Shown piece by piece: positions 1,951 through 18,607 of a stretch of 18,657 nt of DNA. Origin of the DNA: a virus; UHGV virus genome UHGV-0107297; one strand, written 5' to 3'. The notes under the pieces are model-generated. The model made no database searches and was not told the origin of the DNA. It was given only the letters and a program-made list of their open reading frames with translations. Within the stretch, counting starts at the first letter, position 1. Every line of letters begins with the position of its first letter. The translations under genes and the position numbers were made by a program.

Positions 1951-2373
1951 ATGAAACACGTATTACTTCCTCTGGTTGCTGCCTCCGCGTTACTTATCAC
2001 TGCATGTCAATCTCGTCCTATTCCTGTCTCTGAGGCAAAGCCAGCACCGCAGACCAGAATATTCAAATACCAATCTCCGGCGGCATCGACGCTGGTGGTT
2101 ATGAGAGATAAAAGCATGGTGGGCGCCGGTTGCGACGCATCGATCTTCATCAATGGCGAAACCGTTGCAAAACTGGAAACAGGTGAAAAAGTCACTTTTC
2201 ATCTGGATGCCGGAGAATGGATTGTTGGCGCCTCACTCGAAGACGCTGGGCTGTGCGCACTGAATCCTGCTCGTCAGGAACGCGAGACGATTACCAAAGC
2301 TGGCGAGACGAAAGTCTTCCGGGTGTTCACCAGTAATGCTGGTGACATCGATATCTTACCAACGACACTGTGA
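1951..2373 (+). CDS. putative lipoprotein, 140 aa
   Basis: N-terminus MKHVLLPLVAASALLITAC reads as signal peptide with lipobox LITA-C; in-frame alternative ATG at 1915. Confidence 0.6.
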   Translation: MKHVLLPLVAASALLITACQSRPIPVSEAKPAPQTRIFKYQSPAASTLVVMRDKSMVGAGCDASIFINGETVAKLETGEKVTFHLDAGEWIVGASLEDAGLCALNPARQERETITKAGETKVFRVFTSNAGDIDILPTTL

Positions 2374-2377
2374 CGAT

Positions 2378-2905
2378 ATGACGAATATTACTGACATCAC
2401 CTACGGGATTCCTGCAGAAGTCTGGCCGCGCGATTACACCAACGTGGAGAAAGCGCTGATGTTCTGGCGCAAGTCTCTTATTCCTGTAAGGGTCACGATG
2501 GAAGATGGTCAGGTGTTCTGCATGTATGTTCAGGGTCTCATGTCGTCACGCAACAAGGTCGACCTTTGCCCTGCCCCGTTCGACAAAGATAATCGTATAA
2601 GGCTCCCACTTGAGCGAATCAGCACGATTGAATCAGGTGTGACAGAAGGCATTGCACACGACTTCACGGGTCGGACAACGATACACCCAGACTATGTGGA
2701 CAATCGGCCATCTCGCCGTGATTTCTTCAAAATTTGTCGCCAGGCCCATGAGATGCAGAAGTCTATAAGGGTCTACATGGCGGATGGCCGTGAAATTGAG
2801 GGGGTGTCTTCAGGCGTTGACGCTTGTCAGGTCACACTCAACATGGGGGACGGTAGGAAGACAGTCGCCATGTTCGATTGGGTCGAACGGATTTTACCGT
2901 TTTAA
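2378..2905 (+). CDS. hypothetical 175-aa protein with internal duplication; weak Rof/YaeO-like (Rho-binding) resemblance
   Basis: Likely start ATG 2378 (MTNITD) 4 nt after lipoprotein stop; two repeats each with (I/V)RVxMxDG(Q/R)...ERI pattern; Rof link is from memory and unverified. Confidence 0.5.
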   Translation: MTNITDITYGIPAEVWPRDYTNVEKALMFWRKSLIPVRVTMEDGQVFCMYVQGLMSSRNKVDLCPAPFDKDNRIRLPLERISTIESGVTEGIAHDFTGRTTIHPDYVDNRPSRRDFFKICRQAHEMQKSIRVYMADGREIEGVSSGVDACQVTLNMGDGRKTVAMFDWVERILPF

Positions 2906-4783: not shown

Positions 4784-5266
4784 TTACACGCCATCAAGGA
4801 TGTGGATGCGGTTGCTTGCGTATACATTCAGCATAAAGTTAGCGCAAAACAGTTTCCATGTGTCAACGCCAGCGGCATACGTAATGTTTTTGCATTTTAT
4901 TGCATTGTTGGCGATCCGCATCCCCTGCGATACTGCTTCATCGTCGGAAAATTTGAACGACGATTGAGTTTTAATCCAGACAGAAATCTGCGTAGCGAAC
5001 TCAATCAGCTTGGACTGGCAGAATCGCCCGGAGCGTACCGGGAAGACAAATGTTCCGAAGCCAGAATTTGCGACATACGCTTTCTCAATTACCCGTGAGT
5101 AACGACGTTTGCAAATGATGTCGCGTGCAATAATGCATTTTTCTTGTGCTGACAGTTCTACCGTCTCATTGTCGCGCCATGCACCAAGTACTCGTTTTTC
5201 AATATCAGAGAACGTTACAGCGATATTGCCATGTGCGGGTGCGTTTACAGTAGCGATAAAATTCAT
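4784..5266 (-). CDS. hypothetical 160-aa protein
   Basis: SD AAGGAA 8 nt before ATG at 5266; box copy upstream. Confidence 0.65.
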   Translation of the reverse strand: MNFIATVNAPAHGNIAVTFSDIEKRVLGAWRDNETVELSAQEKCIIARDIICKRRYSRVIEKAYVANSGFGTFVFPVRSGRFCQSKLIEFATQISVWIKTQSSFKFSDDEAVSQGMRIANNAIKCKNITYAAGVDTWKLFCANFMLNVYASNRIHILDGV

Positions 5267-5282
5267 GATTAATTCCTTATCG

Positions 5283-5320
5283 TAAATAACAAATTGTTTT
5301 CTTGTTGGTGTTAATTATCG
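5283..5320 (-). promoter_or_regulatory. conserved box copy 1 (AAACAAATTGTTTTCTTGTTGGTGTTAATTATCG)
   Basis: Palindromic core AACAAATTGTT; minus-strand TTGACG-17-TAATTA overlaps it; about 20 nt before the SD of CDS 4784-5266. Confidence 0.5.
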
Positions 5321-5441
5321 TTGTACGAATAAGGCGTCAAAGTGGAAAGTTGCGGTAGCCGGACGGGAACAGGTGGGTTTGTCGGTTGCCTGGAGGTAAG
5401 AGGTTGGTGTTTTTAGCCTGCGGGAAACAGGATGGTCATTT

Positions 5442-5770: not shown

Positions 5771-5804
5771 TAAACATATTGTTTTCTTGTTGGTGTAATT
5801 ATCG
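5771..5804 (-). promoter_or_regulatory. conserved box copy 2 (TAAACATATTGTTTTCTTGTTGGTGTAATTATCG)
   Basis: Near-identical to copy 1; abuts the SD of CDS 5471-5758. Confidence 0.5.
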
Positions 5805-6513: not shown

Positions 6514-6540
6514 AAGGCAGAAAACAAATTGTTATCGGGA
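6514..6540. promoter_or_regulatory. conserved box copy 3, inverted orientation (AAGGCAGAAAACAAATTGTTATCGGG)
   Basis: Same palindromic core, flank on the other side; lies between the 6541-6570 terminator and CDS 6088-6462. Confidence 0.45.
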
Positions 6541-7418: not shown

Positions 7419-7455
7419 TAAACAAATTGTTTTCTCAATGGCGTAAATAATACCA
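7419..7455 (-). promoter_or_regulatory. conserved box copy 4, subfamily b (AAACAAATTGTTTTCTCAATGGCGTAAATAATACC)
   Basis: Same core with a different distal flank, shared with copy 5. Confidence 0.5.
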
Positions 7456-7909: not shown

Positions 7910-7945
7910 TAAACATGTTGTTTTCTGAATTGCGTAAACAATACC
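7910..7945 (-). promoter_or_regulatory. conserved box copy 5, subfamily b (AAACATGTTGTTTTCTGAATTGCGTAAACAATACC)
   Basis: Aligns with copy 4 over about 35 bp. Confidence 0.5.
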
Positions 7946-8286: not shown

Positions 8287-8322
8287 CTAAACATGTTGTT
8301 TACTTGTTGGTGTTATTATCGC
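8287..8322 (-). promoter_or_regulatory. conserved box copy 6 (AAACATGTTGTTTACTTGTTGGTGTTATTATCG)
   Basis: Subfamily a; upstream of CDS 8038-8256. Confidence 0.5.
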
Positions 8323-8770: not shown

Positions 8771-8954
8771 TGGCCCGAAGGCTGACCGAAGGGGTGGAAA
8801 GGGACGTTACGGGGGATGAAAACTATGGCTTGAATTTATGCGGAAAAAGTGGCGATACCCCTCCTTCCCTTCCCACTTATACCTCCCACGAATTTTCTCT
8901 CTTATGTGGGCATAAACCTTCCCTCTGATAACGCTCTATACGGCGAGTATTCCT

Positions 8955-9480
8955 TTGGGTGAAATGGGTGGTTTGTTCTTTCTACCGGCATATGTGGTTT
9001 CGTTCTTCTTGAGGTGGTTCTTCTCTGTGTTTTCGTCTGGGTTGTTCTCGTCGTTTTGGTGAGTGTTCTTCTCCGTGTATGGAGTAATGGCAGGTGCGCT
9101 TTTCTCTTCGTTTACGTGAAATGATGAAAGTGTGGGTAATGGCAGTAGGGCGCTTTAGTTGTTCTCCGCATATGAAGTAATGGCGTTCCCTGCTATTCAG
9201 GAATTTGCGCTCTCTTTCGGGGTAATGGTGGGTAAACGAGATTGTGACGGCTCCTGTTCTTGTCTGGGTTTGTCCGGGGTTTCGTTCTGGCTGTTCTTCT
9301 CCGTGTATTGGGTAATGACGTATCGGGGTTTGCGCGTGCGAACCGCGTTCTCGGTTGCCTGGGAATATTAGGTGGGTGGTCTGTAGCCTGGGGCAATGAG
9401 GTGGGTCTTTTCGGTAGTCTGACAGGAAGAGGTGGGTGTTTCCGGGATTGTGGGTAATGGCGTCTCTGGGTTTCCTGTGG
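8955..9480. repeat. degenerate G/T-rich repeat array, no convincing ORF
   Basis: About 22-bp GKTKKTTCTTCTC units at 8960-9080; GTAATGG at 9084, 9136, 9177, 9222, 9312 (GTAATGA) and 9455; a 26-bp block GTTCTTCTCCGTGTATNGRGTAATGRC at 9065 and 9293; strong G+T strand bias. Confidence 0.6.
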
Positions 9481-9546
9481 GGGTTGTTAACTTGTTTTCT
9501 TATGCCTGAAAACAACTTGTTTAGATGCCCAATATAACGCAACGGG

Positions 9547-9571
9547 AGCGCTTCTGAGCGCTTCTGTTTTT
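9547..9571 (+). terminator. plus-strand rho-independent terminator at the right end of the repeat array
   Basis: AGCGC-TTCTGA-GCGCT hairpin followed by TCTGTTTTTGAG. Confidence 0.45.
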
Positions 9572-9714
9572 GAGTGATATCACGAGTCGTTTTTGACGTT
9601 TTGGTCGCAGGGAGATGGATTCTGGTGCGCAGGATTTTGGGTATAAGAGATGGCTTGCGAAAACGTCAACTTTTTAGACCAAATCAGAGGAAAGCGTTGA
9701 CTTTTCGTTGACGT

Positions 9715-9748
9715 GTTATTTATTTGTTTTCTTATGGGTGTAATTGGC
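9715..9748 (-). promoter_or_regulatory. degenerate conserved-box copy (TTATTTATTTGTTTTCTTATGGGTGTAATTGG), no gene downstream
   Basis: Matches the subfamily-a flank with only half of the palindrome; adjacent GTTGAC/GTCAAC repeats at 9664-9712. Confidence 0.3.
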
Positions 9749-9865
9749 TTAAATGCCTTGTCACCCCTGGGCTGGGGTAGGTTGGAGAGGTGGGGGAAGT
9801 GGCGATCAACGGACTCTTATAGAAATCCTCAATTTGTGACCGCCAATGTCAACGAGTTGCAGCCG

Positions 9866-10492
9866 TTAGTCGTTTAGGTAGTAATTAGGCACGCGAACGT
9901 AGAAATTCTCGTCACCGATCATTTCGATAGTGATGTTAATGTCATTACCGTTATCCAGTGTAGCCGTGGCTTTGTAGAACTTGTCCGTCACTTTGTCCTG
10001 AATTGTTACCTTCATGCATTTAGATGCTTCTGAACCGTTATTTTCTTTCAGAATAGTGGTAACTATAGGGCAAGCAGCTTCTTCAAGCGCTGAATCTGCG
10101 TTGAAGCTATACACGAAAAATGATGCAGCAAAGGCAACAATCCATACGATAAACAGCAGTCGGTTACTTCCAAGAACCGTCGCTCGTTTCCAGAGATACA
10201 CAGGGGGGATAAAGAACCCACATAAGAATGATGGTGGCTCATAGCCTGCCTCAGTCAAATTCATGCGATCGGCGACCAGCAGTCCAAGCCCAATGACGAA
10301 CGAAATCACCATAACGTAATTGTCGTACTCAGCAGGGGGGACGCTGACAACAAACGGCAGTATTGCTATAAGCCACGCGTAGAGGTTTTTAACTGATTTT
10401 TTTTCTAAAGTATCGATTTCCATTACATCCATTCCATTTTGAAATACAAGCGGGTATATGATATCAACTTTCCAGGTAATTATTCCCGCCAT
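9866..10492 (-). CDS. predicted integral membrane protein, 208 aa, with about 80-aa soluble C-terminal domain
   Basis: ATG at 10492 is 15 nt after the upstream stop; hydrophobic segments LYAWLIAILPFVVSV, YVMVISFVIGLGLLV, LLFIVWIVAFAASFFVY. Confidence 0.65.
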   Translation of the reverse strand: MAGIITWKVDIIYPLVFQNGMDVMEIDTLEKKSVKNLYAWLIAILPFVVSVPPAEYDNYVMVISFVIGLGLLVADRMNLTEAGYEPPSFLCGFFIPPVYLWKRATVLGSNRLLFIVWIVAFAASFFVYSFNADSALEEAACPIVTTILKENNGSEASKCMKVTIQDKVTDKFYKATATLDNGNDINITIEMIGDENFYVRVPNYYLND

Positions 10493-10507
10493 TGCTAGTA
10501 GTTATAT

Positions 10508-10828
10508 CTACCAATCCCATGCTGGCATTCCATCCACCAGCTCCGCATCACAGTCAAATTGTACCGAATCATACCCGGCATCCCGTATGGCCTGTATGTT
10601 AGAGATCGCCTCTTGGGAAATGCCGTAATCACGCAATTCTTCCTTCCAGTCATTCCCTCGCATTCCAGCACGAACAATCCATCCATACTGTGTACCGTGT
10701 ACCCAATTCAACCCGCGATCAGTAAGTGGGTCGAAGCAGGCAATGGGTAGCCGTTCTGAATCCGCTGCCGTGACGTGGGCGGTGCTGATCACCGCCGTCT
10801 TATACGATTCGGTGATTTTCAGCATCAT
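10508..10828 (-). CDS. hypothetical 106-aa protein
   Basis: Strong SD CCAAAGGAGAAGGC before ATG at 10828; start overlaps upstream stop (ATGA). Confidence 0.7.
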   Translation of the reverse strand: MMLKITESYKTAVISTAHVTAADSERLPIACFDPLTDRGLNWVHGTQYGWIVRAGMRGNDWKEELRDYGISQEAISNIQAIRDAGYDSVQFDCDAELVDGMPAWDW

Positions 10829-11061
10829 GCCTTCTCCTTTGGAAACAGAATGTTGGCCGTGTCAGAAATGACATCCCAATTCACGCCGACGCTGGCATCA
10901 TGGCACTCTTTGATTTTTCGCAAAACCTGAACGCACTGTTCGTCAGTCAGGTCTGGTCGCCCTTCACCTACATCTTCCTTGTGCCACATCACCATCAGCA
11001 GCGGCTCGTCTTCTGGGTAGTTCTCCAGCTTTTCGATAATTTCTTTCGCGGTTCCGAACAT
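10825..11061 (-). CDS. hypothetical acidic 78-aa protein
   Basis: Track start at 11079 is a TTG inside the box; in-frame ATG at 11061 has SD AAGGAG. Confidence 0.6.
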   Translation of the reverse strand: MFGTAKEIIEKLENYPEDEPLLMVMWHKEDVGEGRPDLTDEQCVQVLRKIKECHDASVGVNWDVISDTANILFPKEKA

Positions 11062-11072
11062 GATTAACTCCT

Positions 11073-11106
11073 TAAACAATTTGTTTTCTTATTGGTATTA
11101 TTATCT
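11073..11106 (-). promoter_or_regulatory. conserved box copy 7 (AAACAATTTGTTTTCTTATTGGTATTATTATCTC)
   Basis: Palindrome abuts the SD of CDS 10825-11061. Confidence 0.5.
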
Positions 11107-11117
11107 CAAATAACGAA

Positions 11118-11140
11118 AGGCAGAAAACAAGATGTTTAAG
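11118..11140. promoter_or_regulatory. conserved box copy 8, inverted (GGCAGAAAACAAGATGTTTAAGGG)
   Basis: Back-to-back with copy 7; same GGCAGAAAACAA flank as copy 3. Confidence 0.4.
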
Positions 11141-11146
11141 GGATGA

Positions 11147-11413
11147 CTAGGTGAGTTTGAAGTCGTCTATGTCATCAACAAACTCCATATACCTGGCTTC
11201 GACACTCGACAATCTGATCAGATACGCAAGCCCGTAACTTAGTGAAGTGGGTTGCTCCAGCACAAATTCGAACCCATCCTCATGCGTTTTACCAAGCCAG
11301 AACCCCCCACCGTATTCTTTTTCACGTTGGAAGAAAACGAACTGTCCGGGTATTAGGTGCTTGAGTGCTTCGCCCCTATAGACGATCACATATTTAGAAT
11401 TCTTGCTGCCCAT
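11147..11413 (-). CDS. hypothetical 88-aa protein
   Basis: Track ORF begins with TTG at 11470; in-frame ATG at 11413 has SD GCGAGGCGAGCA; start uncertain. Confidence 0.5.
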   Translation of the reverse strand: MGSKNSKYVIVYRGEALKHLIPGQFVFFQREKEYGGGFWLGKTHEDGFEFVLEQPTSLSYGLAYLIRLSSVEARYMEFVDDIDDFKLT

Positions 11414-11486: not shown

Positions 11487-11518
11487 AATAACAAGATGGT
11501 GAAAACAATTTGTTTTGG
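11487..11518 (+). promoter_or_regulatory. conserved box copy 9 (AACAAGATGGTGAAAACAATTTGTTTTGGCG)
   Basis: Core GAAAACAATTTGTTTT; about 85 nt upstream of plus-strand CDS 11601. Confidence 0.45.
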
Positions 11519-11600: not shown

Positions 11601-11804
11601 ATGAAGACCTATGATCGCAACCGTAACACTATCACTACCGGCAGCCGAGTGATGGTGGCAACGAATGGTGCAACGGGAGTCATCAAGGAAATCTGCGGAG
11701 AAGGCAAATCAGAAGAACAATTACGCCGCTCTGACTGCGTGTCTATCGAAGGTGTGGAAGATCTGTTCTGCCCAATGGATTTAGTTCGCCTGGGATTCCA
11801 ATAA
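11601..11804 (+). CDS. hypothetical 67-aa protein
   Basis: Strong SD GAAAGGAGGAAACG before ATG; no motif recognised. Confidence 0.65.
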   Translation: MKTYDRNRNTITTGSRVMVATNGATGVIKEICGEGKSEEQLRRSDCVSIEGVEDLFCPMDLVRLGFQ

Positions 11805-11805
11805 T

Positions 11806-11852
11806 TACACCACTAATTAAACAAATTGTTTAAGGCCACAAATAATGGCCTT
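11806..11852. promoter_or_regulatory. conserved box copy 10 fused to a GC hairpin
   Basis: ATAATTACACCACTAATTAAACAAATTGTTT followed directly by AAGGCCA-CAAATAA-TGGCCTT (11832-11852), between convergent genes. Confidence 0.4.
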
Positions 11853-11859
11853 ATCTGGC

Positions 11860-12558
11860 TTACGGAACAGCAGTAATCAGATCGCAAATGCCTGTTTTAG
11901 TTAAATCACTATTTAGCTTCTGAAAATTGGCATTCAGCATTGCGGTATGTATTCGATTCTCAAGTTCAAAGAAGAGATCGATCTTGCCCTCTTTGGCTGC
12001 CACCTTCTTCCAAATATTCACCTGGTCATCTGCGATACGACTTGCGCAGGTGAACAAGAACGAACTCCCTCTGGGAAGGGATGTCGTGCTGTAGTATTCA
12101 CCGTCAACTTCAATATACTTAGCTCGGAATGACTCCAGAGTTAGCTTTTTACCGCTCTCAGCCTGCTTTGTGTCTGCCTTGCTTGTCTTTTCCTGAACTT
12201 CAGGCTGTTTCTGCACAGGCTTTGGTGTCTCATTGACCACCGCAGTGCTGGCCGAACCATCCAAACTCTTGAGGCCATTAATTTGGATTAGATAAGCCAA
12301 CTCCAGAGTCTTATCACCAGTGAGTTTTCCACGCATACTTACCCATTGACGCTGAACCGTCTTTAAGGCGTCTGCGTCCCCCGGGTTTGCTTTGAGTGCG
12401 TTGGAATAGGTAGAGCTAAGTTGTTCGTCTAATTTTGACAGGCGTTCGTTATCGCAGATTTTGTGTTCGATTTCTGCCGAAGCCTTTTGGCAGTCAAAGC
12501 TGGCTGCAAATACAGCCGGCGATGCCACCAACAATGATGCCAGTAGGATATTTTTCAT
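11860..12558 (-). CDS. secreted protein with DUF1311 / LprI-like (lysozyme-inhibitor family) N-terminal domain, 232 aa
   Basis: Track start is GTG at 12564; in-frame ATG at 12558 has SD GGAG; signal peptide MKNILLASLLVASPAVFA; spaced Cys pattern FDCQKASAEIEHKICDN...QRQWV typical of DUF1311 as recalled. Confidence 0.65.
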   Translation of the reverse strand: MKNILLASLLVASPAVFAASFDCQKASAEIEHKICDNERLSKLDEQLSSTYSNALKANPGDADALKTVQRQWVSMRGKLTGDKTLELAYLIQINGLKSLDGSASTAVVNETPKPVQKQPEVQEKTSKADTKQAESGKKLTLESFRAKYIEVDGEYYSTTSLPRGSSFLFTCASRIADDQVNIWKKVAAKEGKIDLFFELENRIHTAMLNANFQKLNSDLTKTGICDLITAVP

Positions 12559-12596
12559 ATTCACTCCATAAATATAAAAGCGCCTGACTATAGCAC

Positions 12597-15664: not shown

Positions 15665-15702
15665 GTCTCCAGCGCTTGCGGTTACTGGCTTGAGAAGGGG
15701 TT

Positions 15703-15810
15703 ACTATCCACTATAGGGAGCAAAATAACCACTGTAGAGAGCATAATAACCGCTATGAAGAGCAAAACAACCTCTCTGGAGAGTAGTCGGTATCCACTGT
15801 AGTGAGTAGG
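15703..15810. repeat. iteron set A, 5 copies at 24-bp spacing
   Basis: ATCCACTATAGGGAGCA, AACCACTGTAGAGAGCA, AACCGCTATGAAGAGCA, AACCTCTCTGGAGAGTAG, ATCCACTGTAGTGAGTAG. Confidence 0.7.
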
Positions 15811-15967
15811 AGACAATGTTTTAACTGGATAACTCCGAGCCTGTTTTTCTGCGGCAGATGGCTGATATTCTTGGAAATATTGTAAATTTTGCGTTGCGGC
15901 GTGTTTATTTCGATCACACATTATCCCCAGAAGGGGAGTGATGCCTGATTTTGTAATTATCTGATTT

Positions 15968-16040
15968 TTATACACAGGCCCGATCCAGTAATTCAGATCC
16001 CTGTTAGAACCAAAGAGAACCACAAAGACCCAAAGAGATC
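15968..16040. promoter_or_regulatory. origin module copy B: DnaA-box-like site plus three GATC sites
   Basis: TTATACACA at 15968-15976 followed by the same GGCCCGATCC junction as copy A; GATC at 15982, 15996, 16037. Confidence 0.55.
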
Positions 16041-16087
16041 CCCGGCCCCTGCAAACCGTTGTGCCACATGGCTTTAGAGGTTATCGA

Positions 16088-16220
16088 TATCCACTATAGT
16101 GAGAAGAACAACCACTATAGAGAGTAAATCAACCACTATGGAGAGTAGAAAAACCGCTGTAGGCGGTAGGATAACCACTGTGATGGGTGCTACTATCCAC
16201 TGTAATCAGTAAAGGCACCC
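16088..16220. repeat. iteron set B, 6 copies at 24-bp spacing, immediately upstream of repA
   Basis: ATCCACTATAGTGAGAAG, AACCACTATAGAGAGTAA, AACCACTATGGAGAGTAG, AACCGCTGTAGGCGGTAG, AACCACTGTGATGGGTGC, ATCCACTGTAATCAGTAA. Confidence 0.75.
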
Positions 16221-16249: not shown

Positions 16250-17305
16250 ATGAGCGTAAACGACAATAAAAACATTGCGATAAGCGAAGCATTTTCCGAA
16301 ACAGACAAAAAGACCGGCGAAGTTGTTACGTTAGTTCCTAACACCAACAACACAGTTCAGCCTGTTGCTCTGATGCGTCTTGGTCTCTTCGTTCCGACGC
16401 TGAAATCGACATCCAGGGGTAGAAAGGGGCAAATGGTCTCTATGGACGCCTCCGCTGAACTCAAACAGCTGTCTCTGGCCAAAGCCGAAGGGTACGAGGA
16501 TATAAGGATTGCTGGTCTTCGTCTTGATATGGATAACGATTTCAAAACATGGGTGGGCATCATCCACGCGTTCGCCAAGCACAAGGTTGTTGGTGACACC
16601 GTCACGTTGCCGTTCGTCGAGTTCGTCAGACTTTGTGGCATACCAACAGCCAGATCGTCCGCGAAGTTACGTAAGCGCCTGGACAGCTCTCTAAGTCGTA
16701 TCGCCACAAACACCATCTCATTCCGCAGCAAAGGCTCTGAAGAGTATTACGTTACGCACCTTGTGCAGACGGCAAAGTACAGTACCAAGAATGACACGGT
16801 CGAACTGAAGGCCGATCCTAAGATTTTCGAACTTTACCAGTTCGACAAAAAGGTGCTTTTGCAACTTCGGGCCATCAACGAACTCTCCAGAAAGGAATCC
16901 GCGCAGGCGCTCTACACCTTCATTGAAAGTTTGCCACCAGACCCGGCGCCAATCTCATTGGCTCGCTTACGCGCCAGACTTAACTTAACCAGCCGCACCA
17001 TTACCCAGAATGCGACAGTCAGGAAGGCGATGGAGCAGCTGCGAGAGATCGGCTATCTCGATTACACTGAAGTGAAACGCGGCAGCTCGGTCTACTTCGT
17101 CATCCACTATAGACGGCCGAAGTTACGTTCGGCACTGCCGCCATCTATGGCTACGCCTGAAGAGCCAGAAGATATCTTGCCAGGTGATGATCCGGAGGAC
17201 ATTATCGATGTTGCCCCTGAAGAAAAAGACGGGGAAATGGTCATGTTGAGCAAGGAAGAACTGGCGATTCTCGAAGAGCTGCGCAAGGCAAAGGCTCGCA
17301 AATAG
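16250..17305 (+). CDS. repA: iteron-binding replication initiator, RepFIB/P1 RepA family, 351 aa
   Basis: Flanked on both sides by iterons; conserved blocks recalled from RepFIB initiators ([62 protein letters not shown]). Confidence 0.85.
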
Positions 17306-17912
17306 CCCAACCACTGTAGAGAGTAAAAAGGCTCACTACAGTAGATAGTGAGCCTTTTTGTTTATCGGAAATGCAATATCCACTGTAGTGAGTAAAAGAA
17401 ACCGAAGAATAACCACTGTAGGCAGTGCGCACAAATCGCGAAGTAAATGTTAGTGGTTGCAAACATAGATAAAACAAGGGCTGAGAGGTTAGCGGTCACT
17501 GGGTATCTCTGTTAAGTCTACTCTCTACAGCGGTTATCGTCGCTCTCCTCATTGTTGACTATCCACTGTGAAGAGCAGAATTGGCTGACTTGACCTCTAT
17601 CCACTGTAGTGAGTGGATATCCGTTTAAAACAGCGAAGATTTACTCTCCATAGTGGATATCCGCTGGAGGGGGCATTCCATCACTCTCTATAGTGGTTGT
17701 TTGTAGTCAGTGAACGCCTGTTTACTCACTACAGTGTATAGCGACCCCGATAATCACCAATTTACTCACTACAGTGGATAGTTGATATCGTGGCAGAGGG
17801 TTTGCTCACTACAGTGGTTGGGGTGCATACCTGAAGGGTGTTCTACTCGCTACAGTGGTTATGAGCCGGATTCACACGCGGTGAGCTGGCTACTCACCGC
17901 AGTGGATAGTGT
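17306..17912. repeat. downstream iteron field, about 14 copies in both orientations
   Basis: Core CCACTGTAGTGAGTA and its reverse complement TACTCACTACAGTGG recur at irregular spacing. Confidence 0.75.
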
Positions 17913-18214: not shown

Positions 18215-18607
18215 CTAATGACTGCCCTGATCGCTGTGGAACATCACCCCGCCGGGCTTACCACGGGTTTCCCATGCCATTTCCAGCGATTTCATGGTGA
18301 GCCTGCTGTCCGGCGAGAACGACATGGCCCAGCCCACTTGTTTTCTTGCGAACAGGTCGAGAACAACGGCGAGGTACGCCCAGCGCTTACCCGTCCAGAT
18401 ATAGGTCACATCACCGCACCACACCTGATTTGGCTCGGTCACGGCGAACTGCCGTTCAAGGTAGTTAGGGATAGCAACATGTTCATGACCACCACGTTTA
18501 TACCGGTGAGTCGGCTGCTGACAGCTGACCAGCCCCAGCTCCTTGGCAATTTGACGTCCTTTCAGGCCTGGTGACCCACCTAATAACTCTGAGACTGCCT
18601 TCAGCAA
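18215..18607 (-). CDS. IS3-family transposase OrfB, N-terminal part only
   Basis: [35 protein letters not shown]...HSDQGSH matches the DDE region of IS3-family OrfB; frame ends at TAG 18215 where homologs continue; orfA would lie beyond the window. Confidence 0.7.

Follow-up and report, generated by a model that had tools for sequence, protein, structure and literature searches.

The question raised by this locus is whether three short genes that stand side by side on one strand of a virus genome work as a single module. The genes were found in an 18,657-nt stretch of the UHGV virus genome UHGV-0107297, and this whole stretch is called the window here. The element is a phage-plasmid of the SSU5/pHCM2 type, a group described previously (PMC7969092). 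Gene 1 (10825–11061, minus strand) encodes a soluble protein of 78 residues (phrog_10258), gene 2 (10508–10828, minus strand) encodes a soluble protein of 106 residues (phrog_5003), and gene 3 (9866–10423, minus strand) encodes a predicted inner-membrane protein of 185 residues (phrog_12486), its reading frame being open up to 10492. The original prediction regarded the three genes as an operon behind one upstream box and, from this layout, as a possible abortive-infection, exclusion or toxin-immunity module. The three co-oriented open reading frames (ORFs) are present where it had placed them. The first two products are acidic as stated, with pI values of 4.56 and 4.47, and the ATGA overlap of genes 1 and 2 was confirmed at 10825–10828. 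The module itself did not hold. According to the analyses described below, the trio consists of three separately swappable accessory genes and is no dedicated toxin-immunity or abortive-infection module. The locus is an ordinary mosaic accessory array of a known element class, and its genes come from families that are frequent and catalogued (Pfam, PHROGs) but uncharacterised.

A megablast search with positions 9700–11300 detected Escherichia coli plasmids at 98% identity (CP057419) and at 92–93% identity (e.g. NZ_CP101235), and Salmonella phage SSU5 at 84% identity over genes 1 and 2. The matching plasmids are mostly 100–120 kb in size and non-mobilizable, and the inspected ones are IncFIB plasmids. 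Their annotated neighbourhoods correspond to SSU5 gene for gene, with a DEAD-box helicase, a "transcriptional repressor", many small hypothetical proteins, a YdfZ protein and an LprI-family protein. The window also contains a Rep3-type initiator gene (16250–17305) with iterons on both sides. From the identity to these plasmids and SSU5, the matching neighbourhoods, and the Rep3-type initiator with its iterons, the window is therefore the variable, plasmid-like part of the SSU5/pHCM2-type phage-plasmid.

Three separately swappable genes

All three genes have homologues, and the ratios of non-synonymous to synonymous substitution (dN/dS) calculated against relatives by the Nei–Gojobori method are 0.07–0.32. 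The homologues and the purifying selection indicate that genes 1–3 are real genes and not chance ORFs.

The genes do not stay together among related elements. In an Enterobacter and a Klebsiella sister element, the box is located directly ahead of gene 2, and gene 1 is absent. Among the sister elements, the DNA homology stops at the gene 2 stop codon. In SSU5, genes 1 and 2 are present without gene 3. The conserved unit is the box and gene 2, and gene 1 is an optional insert between them. The slot that follows gene 2 can take at least three different cargos, of which gene 3 is one. It is occupied by gene 3 in two allelic types that are only 63% identical (108 plasmid records), by a GIY-YIG nuclease, or by a pair of proteins of 63 and 399–408 residues.

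Gene 3 relatives stand alone in at least 15 other loci, with neither gene 1 nor gene 2 beside them. No conserved partner was detected, as the 57 neighbour proteins at 11 of the loci have no family in common. A few of these neighbours are products of defence or mobile-element genes (GmrSD_C, REase-ARP, AbiU2, NYN and a resolvase). One gene 3 homologue stands at the terminus of a P2-type prophage, where its neighbours are SieB, a TIR protein and SLATT. Another relative is near an integrase gene, and others are in plain chromosomal surroundings.

The synonymous divergence (dS) leads to the same result. Against SSU5, dS is 0.09 for gene 1 and 1.7 for gene 2; against NZ_CP101235, it is 0.016 for gene 3 and 0.55 for gene 1. 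A more than 10-fold difference in dS between adjacent genes relative to the same relative indicates recombination breakpoints at or near the gene boundaries.

The operon structure claimed for the trio is plausible as far as co-transcription is concerned: the genes are on the same strand, genes 1 and 2 overlap, and no promoter, terminator or box was detected between the trio genes by the promoter scan, the terminator scan and the box search. A TTGATA...TATTTC arrangement between genes 2 and 3 was considered as an internal promoter and rejected, as it is weak and poorly conserved.

The repeated box upstream of gene 1

The box upstream of gene 1 is one of seven same-orientation copies of a repeat of about 43 nt, and reverse-orientation copies are also present. 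Three elements are common to the seven aligned copies: a 17-bp site, a −10-like sequence (GATAAT/TATTAT) at a fixed distance from it, and a Shine–Dalgarno sequence. The 17-bp site is AGAAAACAANNTGTTTA, and it contains the near-palindrome AAACAA-N-TTGTTT. Copies of the box are located 10–31 nt ahead of the gene starts at 5266, 5752, 7408, 7898, 8256 and 11061.

The 17-bp site was searched for with up to two mismatches to AGAAAACAANNTGTTTA, resulting in 11 copies in the window against 0.08 expected. These are located at 5286–5302, 5771–5787, 6519–6535, 7419–7435, 7910–7926, 8288–8304, 9507–9523, 11073–11089, 11122–11138, 11500–11516 and 11816–11832. A 16.8-kb segment of SSU5 contains 13 copies against 0.04 expected. 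In the first 100 kb of SSU5, 17 sites with no more than one mismatch are present, and most of them are directly ahead of start codons. Among the SSU5 genes preceded by the site are parA, a dnaB-like helicase gene, the gene for the small subunit of NDP reductase, a methyltransferase gene and the gene that opens the terminase block. The gene 1 box is thus one of many copies located ahead of operons across SSU5-type genomes.

The box proposed by the original prediction at 11073–11106 is therefore real, but it is not single, because a second, inverted copy of the 17-bp site (AGAAAACAAGATGTTTA; 11122–11138, plus strand) coincides in part with the −35 region of the putative promoter of gene 1. The downstream copy (AGAAAACAAATTGTTTA; 11073–11089, minus strand) is placed after the −10 element and before the ribosome-binding site. 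According to the alignment of the seven box copies, the candidate −10 hexamer GATAAT is at 11100–11105 (minus strand), and the Shine–Dalgarno sequence AAGGAG of gene 1 (11068–11073, minus strand) forms the 3′ end of the conserved box. As the inverted second copy covers the −35 region, the −10 element is bracketed by two sites. Paired inverted sites around the −10 element are also present in SSU5. These features suggest that the box is a putative sigma-70-type promoter combined with the operator of a genome-wide regulator.

An ORF at 2336–2905 (plus strand) encodes an FljA-like protein (Pfam Flag1_repress, E = 1.9e-95), and its SSU5 counterpart (SSU5_121) carries the annotation of a transcriptional repressor. 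In Salmonella, the target of FljA is the fliC 5′ leader. The FljA-like protein is a candidate binder of the box, which spans the 5′ leader and the ribosome-binding site. The counterpart of SSU5_116 is a second candidate regulator. No description of the box regulon was found in the literature searched. The dispersed C1 operators of P1 are comparable, in that a short near-palindromic site is repeated ahead of many operons of a plasmid prophage. However, the two sequences are unrelated, and the SSU5-type site forms one unit with a fixed −10 element and a Shine–Dalgarno sequence.

Genes 2 and 1

The original prediction recognised no known family in the trio. This was incorrect for gene 2 and partly incorrect for gene 1. 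The gene 2 protein matches the DUF5983 C-terminal domain of Pfam (PF19419) over profile positions 2–90 of 90, with a score of 78.7 bits (E = 4.3e-22; the gathering cut-off is 27 bits). The gene 2 homologues of pOXA-48 and of the Klebsiella plasmid also match PF19419. In NCBIfam, gene 2 has no match. Only 11 residues precede the C-domain in gene 2. The separate domain DUF5983_N gave no Pfam match in gene 1 or gene 2, so that the two-domain architecture of YeeW is not present here. According to the profile match, gene 2 is assigned as a stand-alone DUF5983 C-domain protein (YeeW-like), and it is the conserved core of the trio. Its ribosome-binding site is AAGGAGAAGG.

DUF5983 proteins are located downstream of cbtA in CP4-44-type islands (PMC10790755; bioRxiv 10.64898/2026.06.09.728211). 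Gene 2 has the same C-terminal domain (PF19419) as these YeeW/DUF5983 proteins downstream of cbtA–cbeA in E. coli. It differs from them in lacking DUF5983_N, which is the only domain retained in the truncated YeeW of K-12, and no CbtA or CbeA was detected among the window ORFs scanned. A split YeeW, with gene 1 supplying the DUF5983_N domain that gene 2 lacks, was also considered; this was rejected, as gene 1 has no such Pfam match.

A tblastn search detected gene 2 in 2,334 plasmid records; conjugative plasmids account for 1,680 of these. In pOXA-48, the gene 2 homologue is located directly after ssb in the leading region, adjoining mobA and traI, and the same leading region contains genes for DUF1380, for antirestriction and for a DUF4942 methyltransferase. 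A DUF4942 gene also precedes the gene 2 homologue of a Klebsiella IncFIB/HI1B plasmid.

The residues of gene 2 that are invariant in distant homologues are mostly aromatic, together with R53, N77 and D92. Judged from these residues, a binding protein would be a better description of the product than an enzyme. A published assignment to the glyoxalase group of ECOD (10.1101/2024.01.30.577995) was reflected in insignificant matches only. A search of the Protein Data Bank sequences with the gene 2 profile gave only a chance match to a de novo designed protein. The possibility that gene 2 is a mini 2H-phosphoesterase (H18-V-T and H44-G-T) was examined and rejected, as neither T20 nor H44 is kept in the homologues of pOXA-48 and Klebsiella.

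The start codon of gene 1 is an ATG, and AAGGAG precedes it by 6 nt. The protein has no match in Pfam at E ≤ 10, DUF1380 (PF07128) included, and none in NCBIfam. Among 12 close relatives, five match DUF1380 only at E ≥ 0.03, below the gathering threshold, and the Prokaryotic Genome Annotation Pipeline (PGAP) labels close relatives as "DUF1380 family". The gene 1 profile was then compared by hhalign with genuine members of DUF1380 encoded by IncF and pOXA-48 plasmids, resulting in a probability of 96.8% (E = 2.5e-10). Residues 1–70 are aligned to positions 1–75 of the DUF1380 proteins, which have about 135 residues. As the match covers this part only, gene 1 is assigned by profile comparison as a truncated protein related to the N-terminal half of DUF1380. 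More distant relatives of gene 1 occur in conjugative plasmids, and one of them is a domain within a 155-residue protein of an IncF leading region. Nothing useful was found in the literature on DUF1380 and yeeW.

The locus resembles the leading regions of the pOXA-48 IncL type in several respects (PMC11541004). The DUF5983 C-domain and the DUF1380-type domain are common to both, a DUF4942 methyltransferase is located a few kb from the locus in SSU5 relatives, and in both cases short acidic proteins with no assigned function are arrayed on the same strand. On the other hand, the present element is a phage-plasmid that is not conjugative and has neither an origin of transfer (oriT) nor single-stranded DNA (Frpo) promoters, expression would start from a repeated double-strand promoter/operator box (putative), and gene 1 corresponds to the N-terminal half of DUF1380 only.

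Gene 3

The product of gene 3 had been given as 208 residues with a 15-nt gap after gene 2. The ATG at 10492 on which these values depend has no Shine–Dalgarno sequence and is missing from the divergent gene 3 allele. The gene 3 homologues (57–63% identity) start at the Met equivalent to 10423 (METxx), and some of their ORFs are called three codons earlier, at MDVME (equivalent to 10432). The PGAP calls of the homologues are 185–186 residues in length, and the phrog_12486 alignment begins at residue 21. The most likely start, judged from these alignments, is 10423. The product therefore has 185 residues (188 from 10432), and gene 3 follows gene 2 at a distance of 84 nt (75 nt with 10432). In this 84-nt spacer (10424–10507, minus strand), the first 30 nt or so are the recombination junction, and the last 55 nt or so travel with the gene 3 cassette.

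Three or four hydrophobic helices and a soluble tail had been expected for gene 3, and this description agrees with our analysis: three hydrophobic segments with Kyte–Doolittle values above 1.4, one weak segment and a soluble C-terminal domain were detected. The AlphaFold2 model (predicted local distance difference test score 85.4) has three long transmembrane helices and a C-terminal helix with a four-stranded sheet. A short helical hairpin with an invariant PVYLWKRAT motif is also present in the model. Two Cys residues are invariant across 22 sequences.

Searches of Pfam, NCBIfam and PADLOC with gene 3 gave no match, and a BFVD search detected uncharacterised phage proteins only. A word-indexed search found 28 relatives, and those at 38–43% identity carry an N-terminal GYF_2 domain. 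An exhaustive profile search extended the family to 1,561 representatives across many phyla. Among 80 longer relatives, the N-terminus is GYF_2 in 55 and consists of zinc ribbons in five; in three, the C-domain is replaced by DUF4352. In Spartinivicinus ruber (CP048878, 5522–12624), a cargo hotspot follows the gpU/gpX/gpD tail genes of a P2-type prophage; it contains a gene 3 homologue with GYF_2, SieB, a TIR protein of the CAP12/PCTIR type, an insertion sequence (IS) element and a SLATT_5 protein.

According to the sequence and the model, the C-terminal domain of gene 3 may be cystatin-like. The N-terminus is probably inside and the C-domain probably periplasmic with a disulfide bond, because the GYF_2 and zinc-ribbon N-termini of the relatives are taken as cytoplasmic, three helices are present, and two Cys residues are invariant. 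No homology links gene 3 to any of the characterised Sie, Cor, Imm or Cmi families. The predicted architecture is similar to that of the colicin M immunity protein Cmi (2xgl) in the membrane anchor and the small cystatin-like domain of a helix and four strands. The conserved Cys pair and the predicted periplasmic domain likewise resemble periplasmic immunity and exclusion proteins of the Cmi type.

Proposed working of the locus

The following explanation is proposed. The three genes would be read as a single transcript from the box promoter. When the regulon is on, genes 1 and 2 would be made together through the ATGA coupling as small acidic cytoplasmic proteins, and they may act on host factors and help the element to establish itself. 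This role is suggested because their relatives adjoin antirestriction, single-stranded DNA-binding protein and methyltransferase genes in the leading regions of conjugative plasmids, where anti-defence, single-stranded DNA-binding protein and methyltransferase genes are concentrated (PMC11541004). By analogy, a function in establishment or anti-defence is possible for genes 1 and 2. Gene 3 would be inserted in the inner membrane with its N-terminus inside and would display the disulfide-bonded cystatin-like domain in the periplasm. The domain would bind an incoming envelope-active protein or a component of injection or uptake, so that gene 3 would give an exclusion- or immunity-type protection by itself, with no toxin partner. 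The exclusion or immunity role is our best guess, based on the membrane and probably periplasmic architecture and on the one prophage homologue beside SieB, TIR and SLATT; a general envelope role is nearly as likely. Taken as a whole, a box-driven mosaic array with two establishment genes and an independent envelope gene is the explanation towards which we lean, by a small margin.

Several points weigh against this explanation. The phage-plasmid has no oriT, and the leading-region logic therefore carries over by analogy only. No match to a known anti-defence protein was obtained for genes 1 and 2. The promoter, the operator and the sign of regulation of the box are all putative. The fold matches of the gene 3 C-domain are weak and generic. 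Residue 71 of gene 3 (188-residue numbering) is Cys (FLCGFF), whereas the family has a near-invariant Trp at this position (FLWG). The gene 3 family is broad, and its many members in ordinary chromosomal contexts also fit a general envelope role. The Cys71 variant of gene 3 is found as well in E. coli plasmids of 100% identity, e.g. CP057419, CP057437 and CP057895.

The alternative that survives best takes up the general envelope role. Gene 3 would be a passenger with a general function in envelope maintenance or signalling and no part in exclusion or immunity, and genes 1 and 2 would be phage early proteins that redirect host metabolism instead of countering defence. The 1,561 family representatives, mostly with GYF_2 or zinc-ribbon N-termini and many in housekeeping neighbourhoods, agree with this, and so does the presence of the box ahead of replication, nucleotide-metabolism and structural operons in SSU5. 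However, gene 3 occupies a fast-swapping cargo slot in which its two allelic types share 63% identity, and some of its relatives stand beside SieB/TIR, GmrSD, AbiU2 or REase genes. We regard this alternative as possible but rather doubtful.

The single module of the original prediction is improbable. In such a module, the soluble proteins would sense or neutralise, and the membrane protein would be the effector or toxin, with abortive infection, exclusion or toxin immunity as the result. The shared strand and promoter, the overlap of genes 1 and 2, the membrane protein as the third product and the location in the variable region of a temperate element are all in its favour. Its components do not co-occur, however: the box and gene 2 are found alone, SSU5 has no gene 3, and the gene 3 family stands alone in at least 15 loci. 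In addition, none of the three proteins matched a PADLOC model at E ≤ 1, and adjacent genes have separate recombination histories.

Least probable of all is a type II toxin–antitoxin-like pair or addiction module made of genes 1 and 2, for although the pair is small and translationally coupled and DUF5983 was scored as a downstream partner of CbtA in a toxin–antitoxin survey (PMC10790755), both proteins are acidic (pI 4.5–4.6), neither matches a toxin–antitoxin family of Pfam, CbtA is absent among the window ORFs scanned, and gene 2 is found by itself in thousands of plasmids as well as in sister phage-plasmids, and therefore needs no cognate partner.

Other features of the window

The block immediately upstream of the trio is kept in SSU5 and its relatives. 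It contains an 88-residue phrog_2100 protein (11147–11413, minus strand), a YdfZ-family protein (11601–11804, plus strand; E = 9e-30) and an LprI-family, lysozyme-inhibitor-like protein (11860–12564, minus strand) with a hydrophobic, signal-like N-terminus.

On the other side of the trio, the region of about 800 nt at approximately 8900–9700 has no credible gene, and its sole long ORF has a low-complexity product. The minus strand is rich in A and C here (plus-strand GC skew +0.26, AT skew −0.3), and the region is packed with the repeat units GCCATTACCC, ACCCACCT and GGAGAAGAAC. One 31-nt unit is found again at 5349–5437. Box-like sites are present on both sides of the repeat stretch (9507–9523 and 9716–9741). 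A centromere- or iteron-like array is one possible identity of the stretch, and a non-coding RNA is another. The Rfam and transfer RNA scans of the window gave no match, and the repeat stretch likewise has no Rfam match.

The iterons around the Rep3-type initiator gene are about 21 nt in length (consensus about AACCACTGTAGAGAGTAAA). They are densely arrayed in both orientations at 15686–16215 and 17306–17910, and these arrays and the initiator gene are the plasmid replication origin. At the window edge, a fragment of an integrase core (rve) domain is encoded at 18215–18607 (minus strand; E = 3e-20). An IS element probably abuts the replication region at this point.

Significance

Two extensions of the proposed explanation would matter beyond this locus. 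The stand-alone DUF5983 C-domain protein of gene 2, which is common to the leading regions of conjugative plasmids, the CP4-44-type islands and the SSU5-type phage-plasmids, could represent a new factor of anti-defence or establishment, with gene 1 as an accessory DUF1380-type domain. The gene 3 family could be a new single-gene family of envelope exclusion or immunity, traded as cargo by phages and phage-plasmids. That one or the other of these is true is a tentative idea, and we consider it less likely than not to hold in either form. If true, either would make the locus useful. Gene 2, present in thousands of plasmids, and the gene 3 family, with about 1,500 representatives and no Pfam model, are frequent, uncharacterised and easily testable. 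The useful by-products of the locus are the genome-wide box and these two abundant families, one defined by the DUF5983 C-domain and the other made up of the membrane proteins related to gene 3.

SSU5-type phage-plasmids are frequent in clinical Enterobacteriaceae and are carriers of resistance genes, and their variable region is almost wholly unannotated. The box could define the main regulatory circuit of the SSU5-type element. The locus ties the variable region of these elements to families typical of the leading regions of conjugative plasmids, where anti-defence genes concentrate.

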